Source of the DNA: Candidatus Krumholzibacteriota bacterium | Lineage (GTDB): Bacteria; Krumholzibacteriota; Krumholzibacteriia; LZORAL124-64-63 | DNA length: 64,000 bases | Assembly (NCBI GenBank): GCA_022711765.1 | Contig: JAKLEB010000002.1 | Coordinates: 1,120,620-1,184,619, forward strand | Direction of reading: 5' to 3' | In this document: positions 9,722-20,611 of the stretch, one piece after another | Layout of the letters: every line of letters starts with the position of its first letter | Position numbering within the stretch: the stretch's first letter is position 1 | The notes under the pieces: generated by a model | The model's database searches: none | The model's input: only the letters and a program-made list of their open reading frames with translations | What the model was told of the DNA's origin: nothing | Program-made: the position numbers and the translations under genes

Positions 9722-10670
9722 CGTCGCCCGCGTAGAGCTGGCAGGGGATGAGCTGCTGCGGGGGCACGGACTGACCGCTGAGGTACGCGGCCACCGCCTC
9801 GATCGTCATGCGGCCGATCTCGCGCGGCTGCTGCACGACGTCGGCGTGGATCTTGCCGGCGTTGATCGCCGCGCGCGCCTCGGGCACCGCATCGAAGCCG
9901 ACGATCACGATCTGGCCGAGCTTGCCCGCCTTCTCGACCGCCGCCAGGGCGCCGAGGGCGCTGTCGTCGTTGATGCCGAAGATCGCGTCGAGACCCGGCT
10001 GCGATTGCAGGATGTCCTCGGCGGTGCGGAAGGCGATGTCCTTCGTGCCGCGGCCGGGCAGCTTGGCGACGATCGTGACGCCGGCGTGCTTCGCGAGCTC
10101 CTCCTCGAAGCCCGCCACGCGCTGGATCACCGACTCGACCTCGGGATGGTCGATGATCGCGACCTCGCCTGAACCGCCGATCGCCTCCACGAGCGCCTGG
10201 GCGGCGAGGCGGCCGCCAGCCACGTTGTCGCTCGCGGTGTGGCAGACGATCTGCGCGTTGTCGGCGAGGACTGCGATGTCCGCGGTGAACACCGGGATGC
10301 CCGCCGCGTTGGCCGCGGTGACCGAGGTGCCGATCGAACGCGAGTCGCAGGGGGAGAGCACGATCGCGTCGACCTTTCGCACGAGGAAGTTCTCGAGCTG
10401 GTCCTTCTGCTTCGCGACGTCGAACTCGCCCGCCTGGACGAGGAGCTGGTAGCCGCGCTCGTTGGCGGCCTGCTGCAGGCCGGCCTCGAGGTCCTGGTAG
10501 AAGGGGTGGGTGCGGGTGAGGAGGGAGACGCCGATCACGGCCGCGGGCGTACCGGGCGCGCGGGGGGTGTCGGCGGACTTGCCGGCGTCGCCGTTGCTGC
10601 TGCAGCCGGCTAGGGCGGTGAGTGCAATCGCGACGACGATTGCTGGTGCCGTGCGCATGGAAGATCGCAT
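9705..10670 (-). CDS. Sugar ABC transporter periplasmic substrate-binding lipoprotein (RbsB-like)
   Basis: ORF in the track, 321 aa. Lipoprotein signal ...ALAGCSSNG. Periplasmic-binding-protein type I fold. Overlaps the ATPase gene start. Confidence 0.75.
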   Translation of the reverse strand: MRSSMRTAPAIVVAIALTALAGCSSNGDAGKSADTPRAPGTPAAVIGVSLLTRTHPFYQDLEAGLQQAANERGYQLLVQAGEFDVAKQKDQLENFLVRKVDAIVLSPCDSRSIGTSVTAANAAGIPVFTADIAVLADNAQIVCHTASDNVAGGRLAAQALVEAIGGSGEVAIIDHPEVESVIQRVAGFEEELAKHAGVTIVAKLPGRGTKDIAFRTAEDILQSQPGLDAIFGINDDSALGALAAVEKAGKLGQIVIVGFDAVPEARAAINAGKIHADVVQQPREIGRMTIEAVAAYLSGQSVPPQQLIPCQLYAGDDAAGR

Positions 10671-10868
10671 CGGGGCCTCCTCGAAATATTACGGTCCGTT
10701 GGCGTCGAACCTAGCATGTCCCGCGAGGCTACTCAACCCGACACCTGAAACCGGGAGTCGCTCAACAGCAACTACACTAGGACCGGCCCGTTCACTTCCC
10801 TTTGGCGGGCGTCAGAGACGAAATCTCCATGTGGACGAGAGTACCTGCCACAGGGGGTGGACGGGCCG

Positions 10869-13474
10869 GTTGTGGGTAGCCTACGGACCCTGATCGGTTA
10901 CACTTTTCCGCCTGGTGTCCACGTCAGTCCTCCAGTTGTGGGTGGCCTACGGACCCTGATCGGTTACACTAGAGGCGCTACCGCGCCGAGTACGGCGAGG
11001 TTGTGGGTGGCCTACGGACCCTGATCGGTTACACTCGGGGGCGCTAGGCGCTGGTCGCCGTACCAGTTGTGGGTGGCCTACGGACCCTGATCGGTTACAC
11101 TGAACGGCCGTCTGCCGAATCAGCACATGCCGTTGTGGGTGGCCTACGGACCCTGATCGGCTACACTCTGACCGCCCCCACTGACACCCCCCAAAGGGTT
11201 GTGGGTGGCCTACGGACCCTGATCGGCTACACTTGTCTGAACAATACCACAATTGCCCAAAAAGTTGTGGGTGGCCTACGGACCCTGATCGGCTACACTC
11301 GTACACCACTTGCTCAATCGTTCTTGCCAGTTGTGGGTAGCCTACGGACCCTGATCGGCTACACTCAGAGTCGCCGCGTCGCTGAATCTCCCCTTGTTGT
11401 GGGTGGCCTACGGACCCTGATCGGCTACACTGCTCGCCGGAGGCTAGGACCGAGAATTGAGGTTGTGGGTGGCCTACGGACCCTGATCGGCCACACTTAT
11501 CACCAAGAAAAGGAGCAAGACGCGACAGTTGTGGGTGGCCTACGGACCCTGATCGGCTACACTGAATCGCTCGCGATACTGCGTGATGGGCTTGTTGTGG
11601 GTGGCCTACGGACCCTGATCGGCTACACTCCTTGGAGCTGATGCCTGGTGAGTCCGTATGTTGTGGGTGGCCTACGGACCCTGATCGGCTACACTCGGCC
11701 GGGCTCACCGTGCGTTTCACGCAGAGTTGTGGGTGGCCTACGGACCCTGATCGGCTACACTTCCGTCGCCTGCAGCGTATGAGGCGGCGCCGTTGTGGGT
11801 GGCCTACGGACCCTGATCGGCTACACTGGATGGTCGGACCGCCAGGTCGTCAAGGTTGTTGTGGGTGGCCTACGGACCCTGATCGGCTACACTGCCGGGG
11901 ACCTGATCCTCACGACCGAAGACGTTGTGGGTGGCCTACGGACCCTGATCGGCTACACTCGGCACGGTGCGGCTGTCGATCTGGCTGAAGTTGTGGGTGG
12001 CCTACGGACCCTGATCGGCTACACTTCGCCGTGCGTTTCTCGAGTAGAGACTTCTGTTGTGGGTGGCCTACGGACCCTGATCGGCTACACTATCGACGAG
12101 GTTCCCCCAGGCGGCGGGATAGTTGTGGGTGGCCTACGGACCCTGATCGGCTACACTGTCGGCCGCTTTGATGAGAATGTCCTGGTAGTTGTGGGTGGCC
12201 TACGGACCCTGATCGGCTACACTCCGCCGCCGCTCGGCCGCGAATCGGGGACTGTTGTGGGTGGCCTACGGACCCTGATCGGCTACACTGGGCGGCGCGG
12301 TGTTCATCTCGACGCCCGAGTTGTGGGTGGCCTACGGACCCTGATCGGCTACACTAGCAGATCCACACGACCACTGGCCTGATGAGTTGTGGGTGGCCTA
12401 CGGACCCTGATCGGCTACACTTGCGCCTGCTTTGCTGGCAGCCGCGCGCTGGTTGTGGGTGGCCTACGGACCCTGATCGGCTACACTTGACAGACCTCCT
12501 AGTCGTCGTGGCTGGTGTTGTGGGTGGCCTACGGACCCTGATCGGTTACACTTCGCACGATGATGCCCTGCGCCCGGCGAAGTTGTGGGTGGCCTACGGA
12601 CCCTGATCGGTTACACTATGCCTCCCTGCATGAGCACCGCGAGCCTGTTGTGGGTGGCCTACGGACCCTGATCGGTTACACTGGCCGTGGAGCTCGACCG
12701 CGTGGCACTCAAGTTGTGGGTGGCCTACGGACCCTGATCGGTTACACTCCTGGCCTCGACGCGGGTAACCCGGTCGCCGTTGTGGGTGGCCTACGGACCC
12801 TGATCGGTTACACTCGTCTACGCGAAATTCTGGACCCCAGGGCAGTTGTGGGTGGCCTACGGACCCTGATCGGTTACACTCGAAGTCGTGCCAGGCATTG
12901 GTGGCGGACAGTTGTGGGTGGCCTACGGACCCTGATCGGTTACACTGCAGCCATCCTCGTGGGTCCATCCAGGGCAGTTGTGGGTGGCCTACGGACCCTG
13001 ATCGGTTACACTTCAACGCGCGGCGGCGATATGCGTCGCGCAGTTGTGGGTGGCCTACGGACCCTGATCGGTTACACTTGTAATCGGAGACGTCAGAAAG
13101 GCTGGGAAGTTGTGGGTGGCCTACGGACCCTGATCGGTTACACTCCGCGGCGACCGAGGCCGTGATCACTCGCAGTTGTGGGTGGCCTACGGACCCTGAT
13201 CGGTTACACTCGCGCACGATCGCGACCGTGCGGTATGGGAGTTGTGGGTGGCCTACGGACCCTGATCGGTTACACTACTGCGCGAGTTCGCTAGCGAGCT
13301 CGGAGAGTTGTGGGTGGCCTACGGACCCTGATCGGTTACACTCAGGCCGATCGCTTCGAGCGGATGCTCACGGTTGTGGGTGGCCTACGGACCCTGATCG
13401 GTTACACTAGACGACAGCCAAAACCGAGAGCGGAGGACGTTGTGGGTGGCCTACGGACCCTGATCGGTTACACT
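10869..13474 (+). CRISPR. CRISPR array with 40 direct repeats of 36 bp and 39 spacers (35 of 30 nt, 4 of 29 nt); type II-C style
   Basis: Repeat consensus GTTGTGGGTGGCCTACGGACCCTGATCGG[T/C]TACACT. Repeats start at 10869, 10935, 11000, 11066 and then mostly every 66 bp up to 13439. There are three blocks of variants: R1-R4 GGTTACACT, R5-R25 GGCTACACT, R26-R40 GGTTACACT. R1 and R8 carry GGGTAGCC; R10 carries GGCCACACT. Strand assignment (plus, toward cas2) follows from the repeat 5'-GTTGTGG start typical of type II repeats, the -10-like TACACT at each repeat 3' end, and the plus-strand tracrRNA. Confidence 0.95.
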
Positions 13475-13475
13475 A

Positions 13476-13515
13476 CCTCCCTCTCAACCGGTTGGATTAC
13501 CACTGGTTGAGAGGG
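13476..13515. terminator. Long hairpin between the last repeat and the cas2 stop, a candidate bidirectional terminator
   Basis: CCCTCTCAACC GGTTGGATTACCACT GGTTGAGAGGG: an 11-bp perfect outer stem plus an inner TGG/CCA stem. Sits 1 nt after repeat 40 and 9 nt from the cas2 stop. No U-tract. Confidence 0.4.
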
Positions 13516-13523
13516 ATCCAGGG

Positions 13524-13853
13524 TCAGAAAAGCTGGATCTGCGAGGGCTGGGATTCTGGTTTCGTCGCGGTTCTGCTGAGGTAGCATTCCATTCTCGCGT
13601 ATTGCTTGTCGGTGAATTTCAGGATCCGCACCTGCCCGTTTGGTGGCATGATGGATTTTACTCGCCCGACGTGGACAGCGGCGTTCTCGTCGCTCGGGCA
13701 CGGTCTCGAATACACCGAGTATTGTAGCATGTCGAACCCGTCCTGGATCAGGGATTTCCGGAATTCCGTCGCAGCCTTGCGCTGAGGCTTCGTGATCACG
13801 GGTAGATCGAACATCACCAGTACCCACATGGCTCTCATCCCGCTCAGTTTCAC
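13524..13853 (-). CDS. cas2: CRISPR-associated endoribonuclease Cas2
   Basis: ORF in the track, 109 aa. N-terminus MKLSGMRAMWVLVMFDLPV resembles the type II Cas2 N-terminus (MSYRYMRMILMFDMP). ATGA overlap with the cas1 stop. Confidence 0.85.
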   Translation of the reverse strand: MKLSGMRAMWVLVMFDLPVITKPQRKAATEFRKSLIQDGFDMLQYSVYSRPCPSDENAAVHVGRVKSIMPPNGQVRILKFTDKQYARMECYLSRTATKPESQPSQIQLF

Positions 13854-14782
13854 GACGGCTGGATCTCCGGTAGTTGGAGTTCCTTCGCCGCGACCGGTGC
13901 CGAGGCTCCGTTCTTGACCTGTTCCTCGATCGCGTGCGCGAGGGAACTTGCGGTCGACTCCAGGGCAACGGCGAGCGAGGTGCTTTCTCCCAGGATGGAT
14001 ACCTCGCGATAGAGCACCCCGATCAACCCCTGCTTGACGTCTTTGTCGATCTCCAGCCTGCCTTGGACCGCGAACTCGCGAACGACCGAGTCGACGACGG
14101 GCCTATACGGCTCCATGACATCGTCGGCGAGGCAGAATCCGCTGTATCTGTTCCGGTGGTGAAGCCCGATCACCGGCTGCAGGCCGGCCATGCAGAGTGC
14201 TCGTGCTGTCGCCGCGCGGAGGACCGCGTAACCGTAGTTCAACAGGTTGTTGGGCGGTGCTCCTTCGCGATGTCGCCGGAACGGATGCTTGGTGATGGCG
14301 GCGCATTCTCGAAACACGAGGGGCCAGTAGATCCGGGAGGCCTGACTCTCGTGAGCGCCGATGTTGCCACTGCGGGTCGTTTCAGCCAGCCTACGTAACG
14401 GGACCGCATCATCGCCCCGCAGCAGAGCCGCCTGGTTGGCGATCTTCGCTCCGACGATCCTAGCCCAGAGGTTCTTCTTGAGAGGCGCCGACATCTCCGA
14501 CTGCAGGCGCACTCGTTCACTGTGCAGAGAGTGCACGTCGAGCGGGATGAACATGCCGCACGGGTGAAACGTCTCGTCGCAGGCGAGGATCGCGCCACCG
14601 GTCTTGCCGAGCGCTGCCATGACGCCGGACGAGATCGAGATCCCGGTCGACTCCAGGACGATGAGACCGAGATCCTCGGCGGGGATGTCCGCGAGAGTCT
14701 CGTCATCACGAGTGATCGTGATCCTGGTATTGCGGAGCGCCAATTGCGTGCCGCGCGTAGCGACCGAGATCGTGCGTTTCAT
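13850..14782 (-). CDS. cas1: CRISPR-associated endonuclease Cas1 (type II)
   Basis: ORF 13850..14806. Start moved to the ATG at 14782 (MKRTISVATRG...), which has a GGAGG ribosome-binding site 6 nt upstream; the 14806 ATG has none. Cas1 fold, adjacent to cas2 and cas9. Confidence 0.85.
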   Translation of the reverse strand: MKRTISVATRGTQLALRNTRITITRDDETLADIPAEDLGLIVLESTGISISSGVMAALGKTGGAILACDETFHPCGMFIPLDVHSLHSERVRLQSEMSAPLKKNLWARIVGAKIANQAALLRGDDAVPLRRLAETTRSGNIGAHESQASRIYWPLVFRECAAITKHPFRRHREGAPPNNLLNYGYAVLRAATARALCMAGLQPVIGLHHRNRYSGFCLADDVMEPYRPVVDSVVREFAVQGRLEIDKDVKQGLIGVLYREVSILGESTSLAVALESTASSLAHAIEEQVKNGASAPVAAKELQLPEIQPS

Positions 14783-14832
14783 GAGGCCTCCAGCCCCTGG
14801 CCCCATGAAGATCGACGCCGGTATTGCCGACT

Positions 14833-17800
14833 TTAATCCCTGGCCTGTCGAATCCTACCGATCGGGTCCACCTGGACCTTCGTAATTGAGTGCTTGCGCC
14901 AGTCTACGAAAGAAGAAATACGTCGGAATGGCTGCTTGTTTCCATGAGTGGCCGGTCGACTGTCTCGACAATCACGAATTGTGATATCGAACCGGCTAGA
15001 GGGTGTTGGCTCGCCGGTTAATTTCTGGACTACTCCTATGATACGTTCTCCCGTGACGGGGTTTACGATCCAGACCGACTCTTTCCGCGCCAGCGACATC
15101 ACGAACACCTTCCCCCCTCCGTGATCTCGATTTACCGCGGGAAGCCCCTGTCGACGGACCCGATCGGCCGCAGCCATGGTCGAGACTGCAGTAGCCCACA
15201 TGGCCCTGGGTGCGCCCTGGTCGTCGGTCTCTGCGGAGGCGACGATCTCGAGATGATGGTTGTTGCCCAGGATCGCGAACCGGTGTTTCAGCTGACGCGC
15301 GTTCTTGATGGCGACCTCGATCCTGACTTTCCGAATCGGGATGCCGTTCGCCATGAGGATCGGCTCGGCGTGCCAATTCTTGGGCAGCGTGTTGCTCTGG
15401 CCATCCCAGCCATGGATGCGCAAGCGATCCTCGATCAAGCGACGACACGTGTCATCGCGGATCGTGGCGATGTTCGACCCAGTGAGCGTATCGAGCCGTT
15501 TTCGCGTGACGTAGCGGTCAGCAGCGATCTCGCCGTCACGATTGCGGGCAGGCCCATAGAAGGTCTCTTCGTGGAACGCGCCGCTGATCTTCCGCAGGGC
15601 TCGGTGTGAGACCGTTATGCGCGACGCGAGGTCGCGCGCCGTATCGCGTAACGTGTCCCAAGGAACCGGGAACGGGGGCCGGCCCGGCTCTGGGTGGTGA
15701 TCGCGAGATTTCCAGTAATCCTGATATCTCTTTAGAAGCGCTCGCGAGGAGAGGGCGATCACCAAGGCGTCGATCGCGTGGTGTCGGTGGTCATCACGAG
15801 ACTTGTAGGGTTTTCCATCGTCGTCGACGCGATCCGAAAGGAGCGGTTCACCCTTGGCGTCGTACAGGTCCGGCAGGATGTTGTTCAAGCCCCACTGTCG
15901 CCTCAATTCGGCGGTCAAGCCGCCGCGGCACGACTGGATGGCCTTTTCGCCAGTGCGCAACTCCGGCGGGAAGAGCAATGACAAGTACTCCACGACGGCT
16001 CGCGTGAGATAACGCGTATCGTTGAGCTGGCGGGCCGCGAAATCCTCGGTGTCGAGTTCGGCGCGTTTGAGGCGTTCGAACTTTCCACGTGAAAGCGCAC
16101 CGGAGTGCTGCAGGCCGGCTGCCCGCCGCAGGAGTTGACGGAAAGCCTCGGAACTCTCGCCGAGCCACTCCATCGGCGTCCTGTCGCCCTTCTCCTTGTT
16201 GGCGAGTCGATGGACGAGCACCTTGTTCGCCTGCGAGTCGTCGAGACTGCGCCACCGCGGTAGGATGTGGTCGATCTCCCACTCGCCGCCCGCGAACAAT
16301 TCGGAAACAGGGATCGGCTGGCCGGTATAGAGGCAGTGCCGCCCCTGTTCCTCCCAGATCAGCCACCGATTCACGTCATCGCGACTTCGCGGGTTGCCGC
16401 CAAACTCGGCCACACGGCTCGCCGCCTCTTCGCGCACCCGTTCCCGGTCCCTGAGCGTCTTGGCCTCTTCGCGTCGCCGTTCCGCGCCGTCCTTCATATC
16501 CCGGGCGAGCTCGACGACGATCCTGGCCGGGCAACCGTGTTCTCGGATCAGCGCATTCACGACCTTGCGTACTTCGACCAATGCGCGACGAACGACGGGG
16601 TTCGTGAGATTCTCGAGATCGGTCGGCAGATCGCTCGACGACAACGGCGGCAGCGTCGCGAAACGCGAACTCCCGGGCCGTTGCGGGTAGGCTTTCTGGA
16701 TCGCCTCGAATTCGTCCAACCCGTCGGCGAGGAGCGGCATCAACTTCCGAATCGCTTCGAGCGAATAGCCCAGATAGCCGTCGGCCGGGGTCCACCGGAC
16801 GAGTTTCTCGATCGATTCCGGTTCGACACCGAGGCCTTGCAGAACAGCGATGAGGTCTGTCGGATCATCCGCCTGGACGAGGTGGTCGCGCAAACGCTGT
16901 CGCGTTTGCTCGGCGACCTTTCGCCAGGCCGGGCGGCCAACCGTGGTCGCGAGCTTGTGTTCCACGGAGTTGCCGAGCAACGCCGACCGCCCGCCGCGCT
17001 CCAGGTTGAACTGTGCGTCGGGGTCGACGCCGGTCTTGGCCAGGGCTTTGCGGATGTCGTCGAATTTCACGCGGTCCTTCGACATGAGAAGATCGAGAAC
17101 GACCTGTCGCTCGCCCGCGGTGAGCACCCGCTCGCGCCCGAGGTGCTCACTCACGCGGAGGTTCGCAGTCTCCTTGTGGATGCGAAACTGTTGGGCCTCC
17201 CAGAGCCCTCGCGGGCAGCAGTACTGGCCGGGCTCCAACGGGCATAATCGTACCGACGGCGCGCGATGCAGATTGGCGCGTGATGGCGCGGCCAACCGCC
17301 TCTCTTCCGTCACCTCGAACGGGTGCTGGAAGAAGATCGTGTGACGCAACCGCGACACGAGTGGAGCGGATAGCAGATCCGGATGGCACGTCTGCTGGCG
17401 GGCGACGATCGCTTCGAACTCGGCAAGGTACATGTCTCGCCGCGTGTGGCGATTTCGCAGCCGCGGCTGGTCGACAGGACCGGTGCCTCGTGCGAGGGTG
17501 TGGAGGTACTCACCGAGGGATCGGCAGCCAGAATCCTTGATCGCACGTTCGAGCACGCCGATCTCCTCGAGGATCCCCTCATCCTCTTTCGCCTTCCCAC
17601 TCTTGCGGTTGGACTGGAAGCCCCGGCGCTGGCCAAGGTGGAAAACTGCGCGACCGATCTCGTACGGCTCGAGATCTTCCGTCAACGCGCGTGCACGCAG
17701 TTCGTACGGATCGCTTCGAAAAAGGTCTTCGAGCAACTTGTCATCGACAGGCAGAAGCCCGCCTTCTCGCAACTGCGCCTTCAGGCGGTTACGACGGGCA

Positions 17801-18042
17801 TTCCGCCGCGCGTGGTTCCGCCGCATGCATCTCGCAGTCCGCCGAGACTGGTTGAGAGACATCTCCTTCGCGGTCCCGAAATTGTGCAATCCCGCCTCGA
17901 ATACCCGGACGCCCAAGGGGGGATGGCCAGCACTGTCGGTGTCGGCGAAACCTACAGGCTCAAACGAATTCGGGTTGGCTTCGAGCATCGCCCAACCGAC
18001 GGAGTTCGGCCCGAGATCAAGCCCGAGGATGTACGCTTTCAT
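14833..18042 (-). CDS. cas9: Cas9 (type II-C, 1069 aa)
   Basis: ORF in the track. RuvC-I ILGLDLGPNSVGWAML. Arginine-rich bridge helix RRTARCMRRNHARRNARRNRLK. HNH EIDHILPRWRSLDDSQANKVLV. RuvC-III HHAIDALVIA. GGGGAGGA ribosome-binding site 8 nt upstream of the ATG. Compact size and cas9-cas1-cas2 with no csn2 or cas4 fit type II-C. Confidence 0.95.
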   Translation of the reverse strand: MKAYILGLDLGPNSVGWAMLEANPNSFEPVGFADTDSAGHPPLGVRVFEAGLHNFGTAKEMSLNQSRRTARCMRRNHARRNARRNRLKAQLREGGLLPVDDKLLEDLFRSDPYELRARALTEDLEPYEIGRAVFHLGQRRGFQSNRKSGKAKEDEGILEEIGVLERAIKDSGCRSLGEYLHTLARGTGPVDQPRLRNRHTRRDMYLAEFEAIVARQQTCHPDLLSAPLVSRLRHTIFFQHPFEVTEERRLAAPSRANLHRAPSVRLCPLEPGQYCCPRGLWEAQQFRIHKETANLRVSEHLGRERVLTAGERQVVLDLLMSKDRVKFDDIRKALAKTGVDPDAQFNLERGGRSALLGNSVEHKLATTVGRPAWRKVAEQTRQRLRDHLVQADDPTDLIAVLQGLGVEPESIEKLVRWTPADGYLGYSLEAIRKLMPLLADGLDEFEAIQKAYPQRPGSSRFATLPPLSSSDLPTDLENLTNPVVRRALVEVRKVVNALIREHGCPARIVVELARDMKDGAERRREEAKTLRDRERVREEAASRVAEFGGNPRSRDDVNRWLIWEEQGRHCLYTGQPIPVSELFAGGEWEIDHILPRWRSLDDSQANKVLVHRLANKEKGDRTPMEWLGESSEAFRQLLRRAAGLQHSGALSRGKFERLKRAELDTEDFAARQLNDTRYLTRAVVEYLSLLFPPELRTGEKAIQSCRGGLTAELRRQWGLNNILPDLYDAKGEPLLSDRVDDDGKPYKSRDDHRHHAIDALVIALSSRALLKRYQDYWKSRDHHPEPGRPPFPVPWDTLRDTARDLASRITVSHRALRKISGAFHEETFYGPARNRDGEIAADRYVTRKRLDTLTGSNIATIRDDTCRRLIEDRLRIHGWDGQSNTLPKNWHAEPILMANGIPIRKVRIEVAIKNARQLKHRFAILGNNHHLEIVASAETDDQGAPRAMWATAVSTMAAADRVRRQGLPAVNRDHGGGKVFVMSLARKESVWIVNPVTGERIIGVVQKLTGEPTPSSRFDITIRDCRDSRPATHGNKQPFRRISSFVDWRKHSITKVQVDPIGRIRQARD

Positions 18043-18098
18043 TTGGATGATCCTCCCCAGAAGTCACCGATCGGCCCCAACTCAAGCAGCATACTATC

Positions 18099-18127
18099 TT
18101 GACAATGCGAAATCCAGCCCCTAAGCT
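18099..18127 (+). promoter_or_regulatory. Sigma70-like promoter of the predicted tracrRNA
   Basis: -35 TTGACA (18099-18104), 17-nt spacer, -10 TAAGCT (18122-18127). The predicted transcription start at ~18134 coincides with the first base of the anti-repeat. Confidence 0.55.
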
Positions 18128-18133
18128 GTCACC

Positions 18134-18230
18134 AGTGTAACCGATCAGGGTCTGTGGTCCCATCCATACCAAGGACTCAGATCCGCAGGCTCTGCGGCTC
18201 GGCTTCGGCCGAGCCGCAACCGTTTCCGGG
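18134..18230 (+). ncRNA. tracrRNA: Predicted tracrRNA, divergent from cas9
   Basis: 18134-18152 AGTGTAACCGATCAGGGTC is a 19/19 match to the reverse complement of the repeat 3' half (T-type). Complementarity to the repeat 5' half continues imperfectly, with G-U wobbles, through ~18170. Two GC hairpins follow: CCGCAG-GCT-CTGCGG at 18183-18197, and GCTCGGC-TTCG-GCCGAGC (UUCG tetraloop) at 18197-18214. Lies in the 200-bp gap between the GH92 stop and the cas9 start. Confidence 0.65.
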
Positions 18231-18244
18231 AGGTCCGCACCGCG

Positions 18245-20611
18245 CTACCGCGACATCGAGTACGGCGCCGCCGCGTCGCCTGTCGCCCGCCCCCGATCCG
18301 CCTCCGCACCCATCACGAACCGCAACGTTCCGCCCCGCGCGACCTCCTCGTGCGTGATCCAGTTCCGCTCGAGCGCGACGCCATTCAACGAGACTTCCCG
18401 CACGTACATGTTCGCCGCCCCCTGGTTCTCCGCGACCACCGTGAACGTCCGCCCGCCCGGAAGCGCGATCTCCGCCCGCCGCACGCACGGGCTGCCGAGC
18501 ACGTACTGGTCGCTCCCCGGCGCCACGGGGTAGAAGCCGAGTGCGCTGAAGATGTACCACGCCGACATCTGCCCGCAGTCGTCGTTGCCGCATAGCCCGT
18601 CCGGCGCCGGCCGGTACATCGTGTCCAGGATCTCGCGCACCCGCGCCTGCGTCCGCCACGGCCGCTCGATGAACGCGTCGAGGTACGGCACGTGGTGGCT
18701 CGGCTCGTTGCCGTGGACGTAGTTGCCGATCATCCCCGCGCGCGTGATGTCCTCGTTCGCGGCGAAGGTCTCGTCCGCGACCTGCATCACGAACAGCGTG
18801 TCGAGCCAGGCGGCGAGGCGCTCGCGGCCGCCGATCAGCTCTGCGAAGCCGGCCACATCGTGCGGCACATACAGCGAGTAGTTCCAGGCGTTGCCCTCGA
18901 TGTAGCCCTGGCCGTGCGTGTCGAGCGGATCGAACCCCGCGGGGAACGACCCGTCGGCGTTGCGCGCGCGCAGGAAGCCGCTCGACGGATCCCACAGCGC
19001 GCGCCACGACCCGGCGCGGCGATCGTACTCCGCCGCCACGTCGGCGCGCCCCAGCGACTCCGCCATCCGCGCGATCGTCCAGTCGTCGAACGCGTACTCG
19101 AGGGTCTGCGAGGCCGCGTAGCGGCTGCTGTCGGCCGGCACCCAGCCGAGGCGGCGGTACGCGCCGAGGCCGTCGTAGCGGTCGTAGGTGGCGCTCGCCA
19201 GCATCGCGTCGAGCGCCTCCGCGGGGTCGAAGCCGCGCACGCCCTTGACCCAGGCGTCCGCGATCACCGGCACCGCGTGGTAGCCGATCATGCACCAGTT
19301 CTCGGCGCCGTGATGGGACCACACCGGCAGGATGCCGTGCACGCTCTCGCGCCGGTGGGCGAGCATCGACTGCACGAAGTCGCCCGTGCGGGCCGGTTGC
19401 AGGAGCGTGAGCAACGGGTGCAACGCGCGGTAGGTGTCCCACAGCGAGAAGATCGTGTGGTTCGTATAGCCCTCGGCGCGGTGCACGTTCTGGTCGAGGC
19501 CGCGGTACTGGCCATCGACATCGCTCCAGACGACCGGGCCCAGGTGACAGTGGTAGAGCGCGGTGTAGAAGTTGACGAGGCCCGCGGGGTCGGCCTCGAC
19601 CACGATCGCGCCGAGCGCCCGGTCCCAGGCCGCGGCGGTCCGCCGGCGCGCGCCGTCGAAGTCCCAGCCGGGGGCCTCGGCGGCGAGGTTCGCGAGCGCG
19701 CCCGCCGTGCTCGTGCCAGAGAGCGCTACCTTCACGAGGATCTGCTCGCCGGCCTCGGTCGCGAAGTCGAAATGGCATTTCACGCGCCGGCCGGCGCGCT
19801 CCGGGAATCCGCGGTCCTCGTCGAACTTGCGCCAGAAGCCGCGGTAGACGATCGGCTCCTCGTTGCGTAGGCCGAAGGACGCAACCGGCTTGCTGAACGC
19901 GATCGCGAAGTAGAGCGTGCGCGTCCGCGCCCAGCCGCTCGTCTGCCGCGAGCCGGTGAGCAACGTGTCGTTCTCCATGCGCACGTACGACCACACGGTC
20001 TTGCCGGGGTAGTCGTAGATGTTCGACGTGAGGTCGAGGATCAGGTGAGCCTCGTCGGTGGCCGGGAACGTGTAGCGGTGCAGGCCGACCCGCTCGGTCG
20101 CCGTCAGCTCGGCCTCGATGTCGTGGTCGAGCAGCGTGACGCGATAGTAGCCGGGACTCGCCGACTCCTGCGCGTGCGAGAAGCGCGAGCGGTAGCCGAG
20201 GTCGGGCTGCGCGGCGGGGCCCGGTTCGAGCACGAGGTCGCCGATCGTGGGGGCGATGAGCAGGTCGCCGAGGTCGCTGTGGCCGGTGCCGTTGAAGTGG
20301 GTGTGGGCGAACCCCACGATCGTCGAGTCGCCGTACTGGTAGCCGCTGCAGTACCGGTACGCGGCCGCGTTGTAGCCCTCGCCGAGGCTGTAGGGTACGA
20401 TGTCGGTCTCCGGGCTGAGCTGCACGAGCCCGAACGGCGCCGTGGCGCCGGGATACGTGTGGCCCATCTCGGCGGTCCCGATGAACGGATCGACGAGGTC
20501 GCGCGGCGCCGGCGCCGGCTCCTCGGCGAACGCGATCGCGGCAGCCAGGCCGAGCGCGGTGATGAGCGAGGAACGTCCACCCCGGCGCCGACCGTTCGCG
20601 GGTCCGTGCAT
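18245..20611 (-). CDS. GH92 family alpha-1,2-mannosidase (secreted)
   Basis: ORF in the track, 788 aa. Signal peptide. GH92 hallmark GNEPSHHVPYL. Confidence 0.85.
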   Translation of the reverse strand: MHGPANGRRRGGRSSLITALGLAAAIAFAEEPAPAPRDLVDPFIGTAEMGHTYPGATAPFGLVQLSPETDIVPYSLGEGYNAAAYRYCSGYQYGDSTIVGFAHTHFNGTGHSDLGDLLIAPTIGDLVLEPGPAAQPDLGYRSRFSHAQESASPGYYRVTLLDHDIEAELTATERVGLHRYTFPATDEAHLILDLTSNIYDYPGKTVWSYVRMENDTLLTGSRQTSGWARTRTLYFAIAFSKPVASFGLRNEEPIVYRGFWRKFDEDRGFPERAGRRVKCHFDFATEAGEQILVKVALSGTSTAGALANLAAEAPGWDFDGARRRTAAAWDRALGAIVVEADPAGLVNFYTALYHCHLGPVVWSDVDGQYRGLDQNVHRAEGYTNHTIFSLWDTYRALHPLLTLLQPARTGDFVQSMLAHRRESVHGILPVWSHHGAENWCMIGYHAVPVIADAWVKGVRGFDPAEALDAMLASATYDRYDGLGAYRRLGWVPADSSRYAASQTLEYAFDDWTIARMAESLGRADVAAEYDRRAGSWRALWDPSSGFLRARNADGSFPAGFDPLDTHGQGYIEGNAWNYSLYVPHDVAGFAELIGGRERLAAWLDTLFVMQVADETFAANEDITRAGMIGNYVHGNEPSHHVPYLDAFIERPWRTQARVREILDTMYRPAPDGLCGNDDCGQMSAWYIFSALGFYPVAPGSDQYVLGSPCVRRAEIALPGGRTFTVVAENQGAANMYVREVSLNGVALERNWITHEEVARGGTLRFVMGAEADRGRATGDAAAPYSMSR

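Follow-up and report, generated by a model that had tools for sequence, protein, structure and literature searches.

A predicted tracrRNA gene divergent from cas9 in a type II-C CRISPR-Cas9 locus

Results

A probable tracrRNA gene in a complete type II-C locus

The plus-strand segment from position 18134 to position 18225 of the analysed DNA (64,000 nucleotides, the whole of which we refer to as the window) very probably encodes the tracrRNA of a type II-C CRISPR-Cas9 locus, as judged from its sequence and from comparison with related loci. A tracrRNA is a helper RNA which forms base pairs with CRISPR repeats and loads Cas9. The identification as a tracrRNA, put forward in an earlier reading of this DNA (hereafter the original prediction), is upheld by an anti-repeat which is unique in the window and lies beside a cas9-cas1-cas2-array module, by a conserved promoter, nexus and terminal stem-loop, and by helices whose base pairs covary. 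The locus is made up as follows:

14833-18042, minus strand: cas9, encoding 1069 amino acids (type II-C size), with Pfam domains RuvC_III, HNH_4 and Cas9_a
13850-14806, minus strand: cas1 (Pfam Cas_Cas1)
13524-13853, minus strand: cas2 (Pfam CRISPR_Cas2)
10869-13474, predicted plus strand: CRISPR array with 40 repeats (36 nt each) and 39 spacers (29-30 nt each), crRNA sense GUUGUGGG...UACACU
18245-20611, minus strand: gene of a GH92 glycosidase (Pfam), which ends at 18245 and is convergent with the predicted tracrRNA gene

The cas operon is contiguous, cas9 being followed by cas1, cas2 and then the array, with gaps of 26 nt between cas9 and cas1 and of 49 nt between cas2 and the array; about 200 nt separate cas9 from its upstream neighbour, the GH92 gene. 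Neither csn2 nor cas4 is part of the operon. With cas9, cas1 and cas2 as the only cas genes and a compact Cas9, the CRISPR locus in the window is a complete type II-C locus. The array is convergent with cas2, its strand being assigned from the G-U asymmetry described below. The solved structures nearest to the window Cas9 (phmmer) are those of compact Cas9 proteins of 1055-1154 residues, with E values of about 1e-58 to 1e-66. The entries of 1082-3 residues among them are presumably N. meningitidis Cas9. The cas9 reading frame in the window is intact from the ATG at 18042 and contains GLDLGPNSVGWA at residues 7-18. A public protein of 100% identity (P0002; JGI, 1.5-Mb contig) begins at residue 204 of the window Cas9, and this gene call is consequently devoid of the RuvC-I N-terminus.

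The array contains two main repeat variants, which occur in blocks and are told apart by position 30. T is found there in repeats 1-4 and 26-40 (19 copies including the 15 nearest to cas2), whereas the 21 repeats from 5 to 25 have C, and one of these 21 is altered at a second position as well. Such blocks suggest either recombination or the spread of a mutated repeat as new spacers were acquired. An 11-bp inverted repeat at 13479-13515 (CCCTCTCAACC ... GGTTGAGAGGG, 15-nt loop), which has no U-tract, fills the 49 nt from the end of the array to the cas2 stop codon and may be a common stop signal for the convergent transcripts of cas operon and array. A search of IMG/VR for protospacers of three spacers, sought for the PAM side as an independent strand test, gave zero exact matches. 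Comparison of the spacers with the rest of the window and with the related loci fetched for this study gave only one 21/22 and one 16/16 match, both uninterpretable. The former links spacer 29 (12749-12778) to positions 10425-10446 of L002 (blastn-short, E 4e-4), 1.4 kb past the array of this Planctomycetales MAG locus, and could be due to chance in GC-rich DNA or to a mobile-element target in common.

Anti-repeat and duplex with the repeat

The gap between cas9 and the GH92 gene harbours the following elements:

18099-18104, plus strand: -35 element TTGACA, read in the sequence, with a position conserved in relatives
18122-18127, plus strand: -10 element TAAGCT (TAnnnT type), 17 nt after the -35 element and 6 nt before the predicted start
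18134-18225, plus strand: predicted tracrRNA of about 92 nt, the 5' end placed by promoter geometry and the 3' end by the point at which conservation stops
18134-18169, plus strand: anti-repeat, positions 1-24 of which pair with repeat positions 36-13 and positions 27-35 with repeat positions 11-3
18173-18184, plus strand: nexus-like small hairpin GGAC-UCA-G(A)UCC, preceded by a conserved CCAAGG, with covariation in alignment A4 (see below)
18185-18223, plus strand: composite terminal stem-loop, a closing helix around an 11-bp hairpin (RNAalifold)
18185-18189 with 18220-18223, plus strand: closing helix GC.GG/CCGU, weakly supported (RNAalifold)
18193-18218, plus strand: 11-bp hairpin with a UUCG loop at 18204-18207, with covariation in alignments A2 and A4 (see below)
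18224-18225, plus strand: short U-tract and predicted transcript end, UUU if the paired U at 18223 is counted

At 18134-18152 the plus strand reads AGTGTAACCGATCAGGGTC, a 19-mer identical to the reverse-complemented 3' half of the repeat in its T-at-30 variant. The original prediction had claimed a 19/19 match to the repeat, which holds for this variant (19/40 repeats) but not for the remaining ones; 20 repeats with C at position 30 match in 18/19 positions and one further repeat, which carries two changes, in 17/19. If up to two mismatches are allowed, 41 occurrences of the 19-mer are found, namely the 40 array repeats on the minus strand and the single plus-strand copy at 18134, as against 0.00 chance matches in shuffled sequence. 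Over the full 36 nt, the site agrees with the reverse-complemented repeat in 27/36 positions without gaps, and no other site in the 64-kb window lies within 12 mismatches of the 36-nt repeat complement. The anti-repeat is located 92 nt upstream of the cas9 ATG and outside the array.

Folding the crRNA repeat together with the predicted tracrRNA by means of RNAcofold, a check proposed at the outset, yields a duplex of 33 bp including 4 G-U pairs (about -58.2 kcal/mol). In this duplex repeat positions 13-36 pair with anti-repeat positions 1-24 and repeat positions 3-11 with anti-repeat positions 27-35, the two helices being separated by a 1x2 internal loop. Cas9 guide RNAs usually show a long distal duplex, an asymmetric bulge and a short spacer-proximal duplex. 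The ungapped pairing originally drawn beyond the 19-mer turns out to be essentially right, although slightly out of register compared to the RNAcofold result. The T variant of the repeat alone pairs perfectly with the tracrRNA, while the C variant introduces a C.A mismatch and reaches -53.9 kcal/mol; 21/40 repeats carry this mismatch, one of them along with a second one. Each upstream anti-repeat of 68 distinct loci forms 22-34 Watson-Crick and 0-6 G-U pairs with the repeat of its own locus, with repeats differing between loci. Across related loci, anti-repeat and repeat evolve in concert.

Conservation in related loci

We fetched 171 related loci, found the array by a k-mer scan in 104 of them and analysed 98 for the position of the anti-repeat. 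Identity to the window Cas9 amounts to 86% in the closest relative, to 62-63% in Candidatus Krumholzibacteriia MAGs and to 30-55% in Planctomycetota and others. Wherever an array was detected (104/104 loci) it follows cas2 and carries the repeat AGTGTA...CACAAC on the cas9 strand, as is the case in the window. In about 85/98 loci the best repeat-like sequence outside the array precedes cas9 by 50-130 nt and is on the strand opposite to it. In the 20 loci with a Cas9 identity of at least 44% (44-86%) a co-linear element of 87-99 nt is present, composed, in this order, of AGUGUAAC..., CCAAGGAC..GAUCCGCAGGCUCUGCGG, a variable hairpin and CCGCAACCGUUU. Similarity within this element ends directly after CCG(U/C)UU, which corresponds to position 18225 of the window. 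The genes flanking it vary by locus and include those of a peptidase, a radical SAM enzyme, a ROK kinase, an MFS transporter and a recombinase; the element is therefore to be regarded as part of the CRISPR module and not of the GH92 gene.

A covariance model (R1) built from alignment A2 assigns 110.5 bits (E 6e-25) to the window element, which is the sole full-length match in the window, all others being array repeats matched by the anti-repeat part only. Every R1 match reported for the related loci is on the strand opposite to cas9, with a position just upstream of the cas9 start in all cases in which this was checked; scores amount to 105-112 bits in 13 loci and to 24-100 bits in further ones. 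The element of the closest relative (L161/L162, 86% Cas9 identity) differs from that of the window in 2/92 positions. Other relatives differ mainly in the spacer-proximal part of the anti-repeat, which tracks their own repeats, and in the sequence of the hairpin, where the changes are compensatory. The predicted tracrRNAs of these uncultured Krumholzibacteriia and Planctomycetota type II-C loci are direct homologues with the same promoter geometry.

Two observations were made in passing. In L161-L171 the tracrRNA-cas9-cas1-cas2-array module is found in a different gene neighbourhood in every relative, adjoining a serine recombinase in L170 and IS66 transposase genes in L165, which is consistent with the module moving horizontally. 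L087 contains two tandem R1 matches upstream of cas9 within positions 1511-1712 (1614-1712, 48.9 bits; 1511-1585, 37.1 bits), which may represent a duplicated tracrRNA gene.

Predicted promoter and transcript ends

The hexamers TTGACA and TAAGCT as well as the 17-nt spacer between them, all of which had been described originally, are present at 18099-18104 and 18122-18127. A consensus scan of 17800-18500 calls neither a promoter nor a terminator at the tracrRNA; the -10 element agrees with TATAAT in 3/6 positions, and the U-tract, just 3 long, is too short for the terminator scan. Since the consensus scan calls neither signal, support for both comes from comparison with relatives. For the promoter, the upstream sequences of 37 distinct relatives were lined up on the base with which the anti-repeat begins. 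Of these relatives, 31/37 possess TTGACN (at least 5/6), located 16-18 nt upstream of a hexamer which ends 6-7 nt before the A of AGUGUAA. The -35 element and TAnnnT occur together in 19/37 relatives versus 0.1 expected from shuffled upstream sequence (maximum 1), and the sequence between the hexamers varies freely. We read this pattern as the phylogenetic footprint of a promoter which is predicted to start an RNA at or next to position 18134.

At the 3' end, U3-U5 directly follow the composite stem in relatives and the sequences diverge immediately afterwards, a pattern which fits an intrinsic terminator with a short tail. In the window conservation stops at 18225, right after CCGUUU, and not at 18240, where the end of the tracrRNA had been placed before. 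With about 92 nt, the predicted length falls inside the range of 75-110 nt reported for primary tracrRNAs (PMC3737331).

Structure of the 3' part

The structure tested comprises the nexus hairpin, the closing helix and the terminal hairpin. In a MAFFT alignment of 20 relatives (A2) 97.4% of cells are paired and 6 pairs show double changes, all of them in the terminal hairpin (6/10 pairs, 100% of cells paired). For the whole structure, 0/500 shuffles reach the observed percentage paired and covariation score, and sliding the partners by 1-3 columns as a control causes pairing to drop to 30-43%. In a wider and more diverse alignment (A4) compensatory changes are found in 17/19 pairs (hairpin 10/10, nexus 4/4), although these counts lean towards the structure since A4 was fitted to the model. 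In the closing helix the inner two pairs are well kept in A4 while the outer two are weak. Folding of 18170-18228 as a single sequence reproduces nexus and terminal stem with an energy of -28 kcal/mol (z -3.0). A 7-nt insertion lengthens the nexus stem in L061.

The original prediction envisaged two GC hairpins in this part. The one with the UUCG loop is retained and covaries, its span being corrected from 18197-18214 to 18194-18217 (loop at 18204-18207). In contrast, the first one (CCGCAG/CUGCGG, 18183-18197) shows no covariation. None of its pairs has a double change, it makes use of bases which also belong to the terminal stem, and it is disrupted in two relatives (L003 and L082) in which the terminal stem is still paired, so that one composite stem is favoured over a separate hairpin. 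A helix between anti-repeat and nexus, proposed by RNAalifold for the free tracrRNA, was set aside as its bases are needed for crRNA pairing.

Strand of tracrRNA and crRNA

G-U pairs allow the two strands to be told apart because a G-U pair turns into a C.A mismatch on the other strand. In the window the duplex amounts to about -58.5 kcal/mol with 4 G-U pairs in the plus sense and to -45.6 kcal/mol with 0 G-U pairs in the minus sense. Of 68 distinct repeat/anti-repeat pairs, 65 are more stable in the plus-equivalent orientation (Wilcoxon p = 3e-12), in which G-U pairs average 2.8 over the 68 loci versus 0.4 in the opposite orientation. G-U asymmetry, promoter and 3' hairpins indicate that crRNA and tracrRNA are both encoded opposite to the cas9 strand, in agreement with the divergent, plus-strand tracrRNA proposed originally; the array would then be transcribed towards cas2. 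Array transcription opposite to the cas operon has been shown experimentally for N. meningitidis and C. jejuni (PMC3737331). This feature of type II-C loci, which is frequent though not defining, is predicted here from the G-U asymmetry and the strand of the tracrRNA.

As to the source of the plus-strand crRNAs, a consensus scan reveals no canonical promoter in or beside the array, so that this source is presumed. In crRNA sense, 80/84 distinct repeats of the clade end with TAnnnT at their 3' side; TACACT is the form seen in 43 and in the window. The TGn extension is absent from the window repeat and present in 6/84 clade repeats. N. meningitidis possesses repeat-embedded extended -10 promoters of the type TGnTACAAT (PMC5965381), and by analogy the TAnnnT repeat end is possibly a repeat-embedded -10 element.

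Alternative explanations

Complementarity at the DNA level is symmetric and the exact 19-nt core fits both strands; moreover, prediction tools often assume array and cas genes to be on one strand (PMC3737331). The tracrRNA might thus be placed on the minus strand, co-directional with cas9 as part of its leader and pairing with minus-strand crRNAs. The resulting duplex, however, would be weaker by 12.9 kcal/mol in the window because its 4 G-U pairs become C.A mismatches, and it is weaker in 65/68 related loci. Furthermore, a minus-strand anti-repeat would run straight into the cas9 start codon without conserved hairpins or terminator, and the conserved promoter, nexus and terminal stem-loop make sense on the plus strand only. 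A minus-strand tracrRNA, discarded on account of the G-U asymmetry, is in our view highly improbable. We attach an equally low probability to the idea of the element as an unexpressed remnant of a CRISPR repeat in decay upstream of cas9, the GC hairpin being simply the terminator of the convergent GH92 gene. Admittedly, 28 nt separate this hairpin from the GH92 stop codon and it could terminate transcripts arriving from either direction; moreover, the consensus scan calls no promoter or terminator. Yet the whole 92-nt unit including the hairpin is conserved where the neighbour is not GH92, the hairpin covaries, the promoter hexamers hold their position, and a decaying repeat would not keep substitutions restricted to G-U.

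Finally, the functional tracrRNA might derive from a different anti-repeat elsewhere in the locus, for instance in the cas2-array gap or beyond the array. The anti-repeats of C. jejuni and of type II-B loci are found near the array (PMC3737331), and in L163, L018 and L050 the best repeat-like match lies just beyond the array. In the window, however, neither the repeat-complement scan at up to 12 mismatches nor R1 detects a better or, array repeats apart, any other notable anti-repeat; the original prediction had named the existence of such a site as a possible refutation. The sizes of the gaps between cas2 and array (49 nt) and between cas9 and cas1 (26 nt) also count against it. The matches beyond the array in the three relatives look like degenerate terminal repeats since they are in the repeat's own orientation. 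The upstream element is also present in L163, and upstream R1 matches exist in L018, where the score is weaker (39.6 bits), and in L050, where it is marginal only (27.6 bits, E 0.0011). This explanation appears the least probable of all. A plus-strand tracrRNA gene at 18134-18225 is the reading we retain.

Discussion

On the basis of these data, a sigma70-type promoter (TTGACA, 17 nt, TAAGCT) would start an RNA at or next to A18134 and direct its synthesis away from cas9. The first 35 nt of this RNA are expected to pair with the 36-nt repeats of plus-strand crRNA precursors, which would result in two duplexes, one of 24 bp on the distal and one of 9 bp on the spacer-proximal side, with an asymmetric internal loop between them. 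Its 3' part is predicted to form the small nexus hairpin, then one long terminal stem-loop and finally UUU. Via nexus and terminal stem-loop this part would bind Cas9, serve as a scaffold and end the transcript. RNase III may cut inside the 24-bp distal duplex, and the dual RNA would guide Cas9 to DNA. Transcription as such, the exact 5' and 3' ends, any processing by RNase III as well as binding and activity of Cas9 are here extrapolated from established type II biology.

The position of the element agrees with the survey of Chylinski 2013, according to which anti-repeats are mostly located upstream of cas9 in types II-A and II-C, while loci within one Cas9 subcluster have the tracrRNA position in common (PMC3737331). 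The sequences of tracrRNAs are too diverse for one model (PMC3737331). A scan of 10000-19000 against Rfam gives no family at E <= 1, a result which is to be expected in view of this diversity and weighs little.

Among known systems, the type II-C tracrRNA of N. meningitidis (Nme; sequence taken from PMC8038530) is one of the closest. Like the RNA predicted here, it starts with a 5' anti-repeat complementary to a repeat of 36 nt (GUUGU...UACA(A/C)U), followed by an AAGG-initiated nexus, CCGCA(A)(C/G)GCUCUGC, a long terminal hairpin and a CGUUU end, and its array is transcribed opposite to the cas operon (PMC3737331), as is predicted here. Alignment of the two 3' modules scores 49.5, compared to 33.7 +/- 4.7 for 500 shuffles, the maximum of which (48) is narrowly exceeded. 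Both modules have in common AAGG, AGAU..CCGCA(A)(C/G)GCUCUGC, the hairpin loop and the CGUUU tail, and their helices are co-linear. The helix closing the terminal hairpin is AACG/CGUU in Nme and GC.GG/CCGU here. In other respects the two differ. Their sequences show no more than a distant resemblance (alignment z about 3.4), the nexus comprises 3-4 bp here in contrast to about 8 bp in Nme, and the window Cas9 is remote from the nearest compact Cas9 proteins with a solved structure (phmmer E about 1e-66). Repeat-embedded TGnTACAAT, as known from N. meningitidis, is not evident here, the repeats ending with TACACT without TGn. While the Nme tracrRNA is experimentally validated, the window RNA is a prediction. 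From this comparison of sequences, the window RNA would work like an Nme-type tracrRNA and probably represents a distant homologue of that of N. meningitidis.

With the type II-A tracrRNA of S. pyogenes the predicted RNA shares the order anti-repeat, nexus and terminal hairpins and a promoter of its own, which in the window is a predicted one. The S. pyogenes tracrRNA, too, is reportedly encoded upstream of cas9 on the opposite strand (Deltcheva 2011). In S. pyogenes the array points in the same direction as cas9 (PMC3737331), whereas it is convergent here. Unlike S. pyogenes, the window locus lacks csn2, its Cas9 is shorter by about 300 aa, and its predicted tracrRNA displays no sequence similarity to that of S. 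pyogenes, no match to an Rfam tracrRNA and no sign of a second, upstream promoter giving rise to a long form.

Although well supported, the predicted tracrRNA is an ordinary component of a type II-C system with the layout common for this type, and the finding leaves the understanding of how type II systems work unchanged. Cas9, the crRNA sense and the boundaries and structure of the tracrRNA are now all assigned for an uncharacterised, compact, high-GC II-C Cas9 clade of uncultured Krumholzibacteriia- and Planctomycetota-like bacteria; a literature search for a characterised Cas9 of this clade found none. With the parts list complete, an sgRNA can be designed directly as guide + GUUGUGGGUGGCCUACGGACC + tetraloop + GGUCUGUGGUCCCAUCCAUACCAAGGACUCAGAUCCGCAGGCUCUGCGGCUCGGCUUCGGCCGAGCCGCAACCGUUU. 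In addition, the orientation of the array is fixed, a point on which annotation pipelines are often wrong in the case of II-C loci.

A further observation concerns the opposite strand of the promoter region. In the subgroup closest to the window (L163-L167, L170 and L171) a cas9-strand TTGAG(C/T)-17-TATTCT overlaps the tracrRNA promoter back-to-back, with its -35 element inside the spacer of the tracrRNA promoter and its -10 element just past the tracrRNA -35 element. In the window itself, 18043-18133 contains a weak version only of a cas9-strand promoter (TGGATT-17-TATGCT, or TAGTAT). One might speculate, although we consider it rather unlikely, that tracrRNA and cas9 are expressed from overlapping divergent promoters, perhaps combined with crRNAs originating from weak -10 elements at the repeat ends. 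Such an arrangement, if true, would constitute a mode of regulation not described for type II-C systems, in which polymerase occupancy of one promoter could limit the other, set the ratio of Cas9 to tracrRNA and couple their expression.
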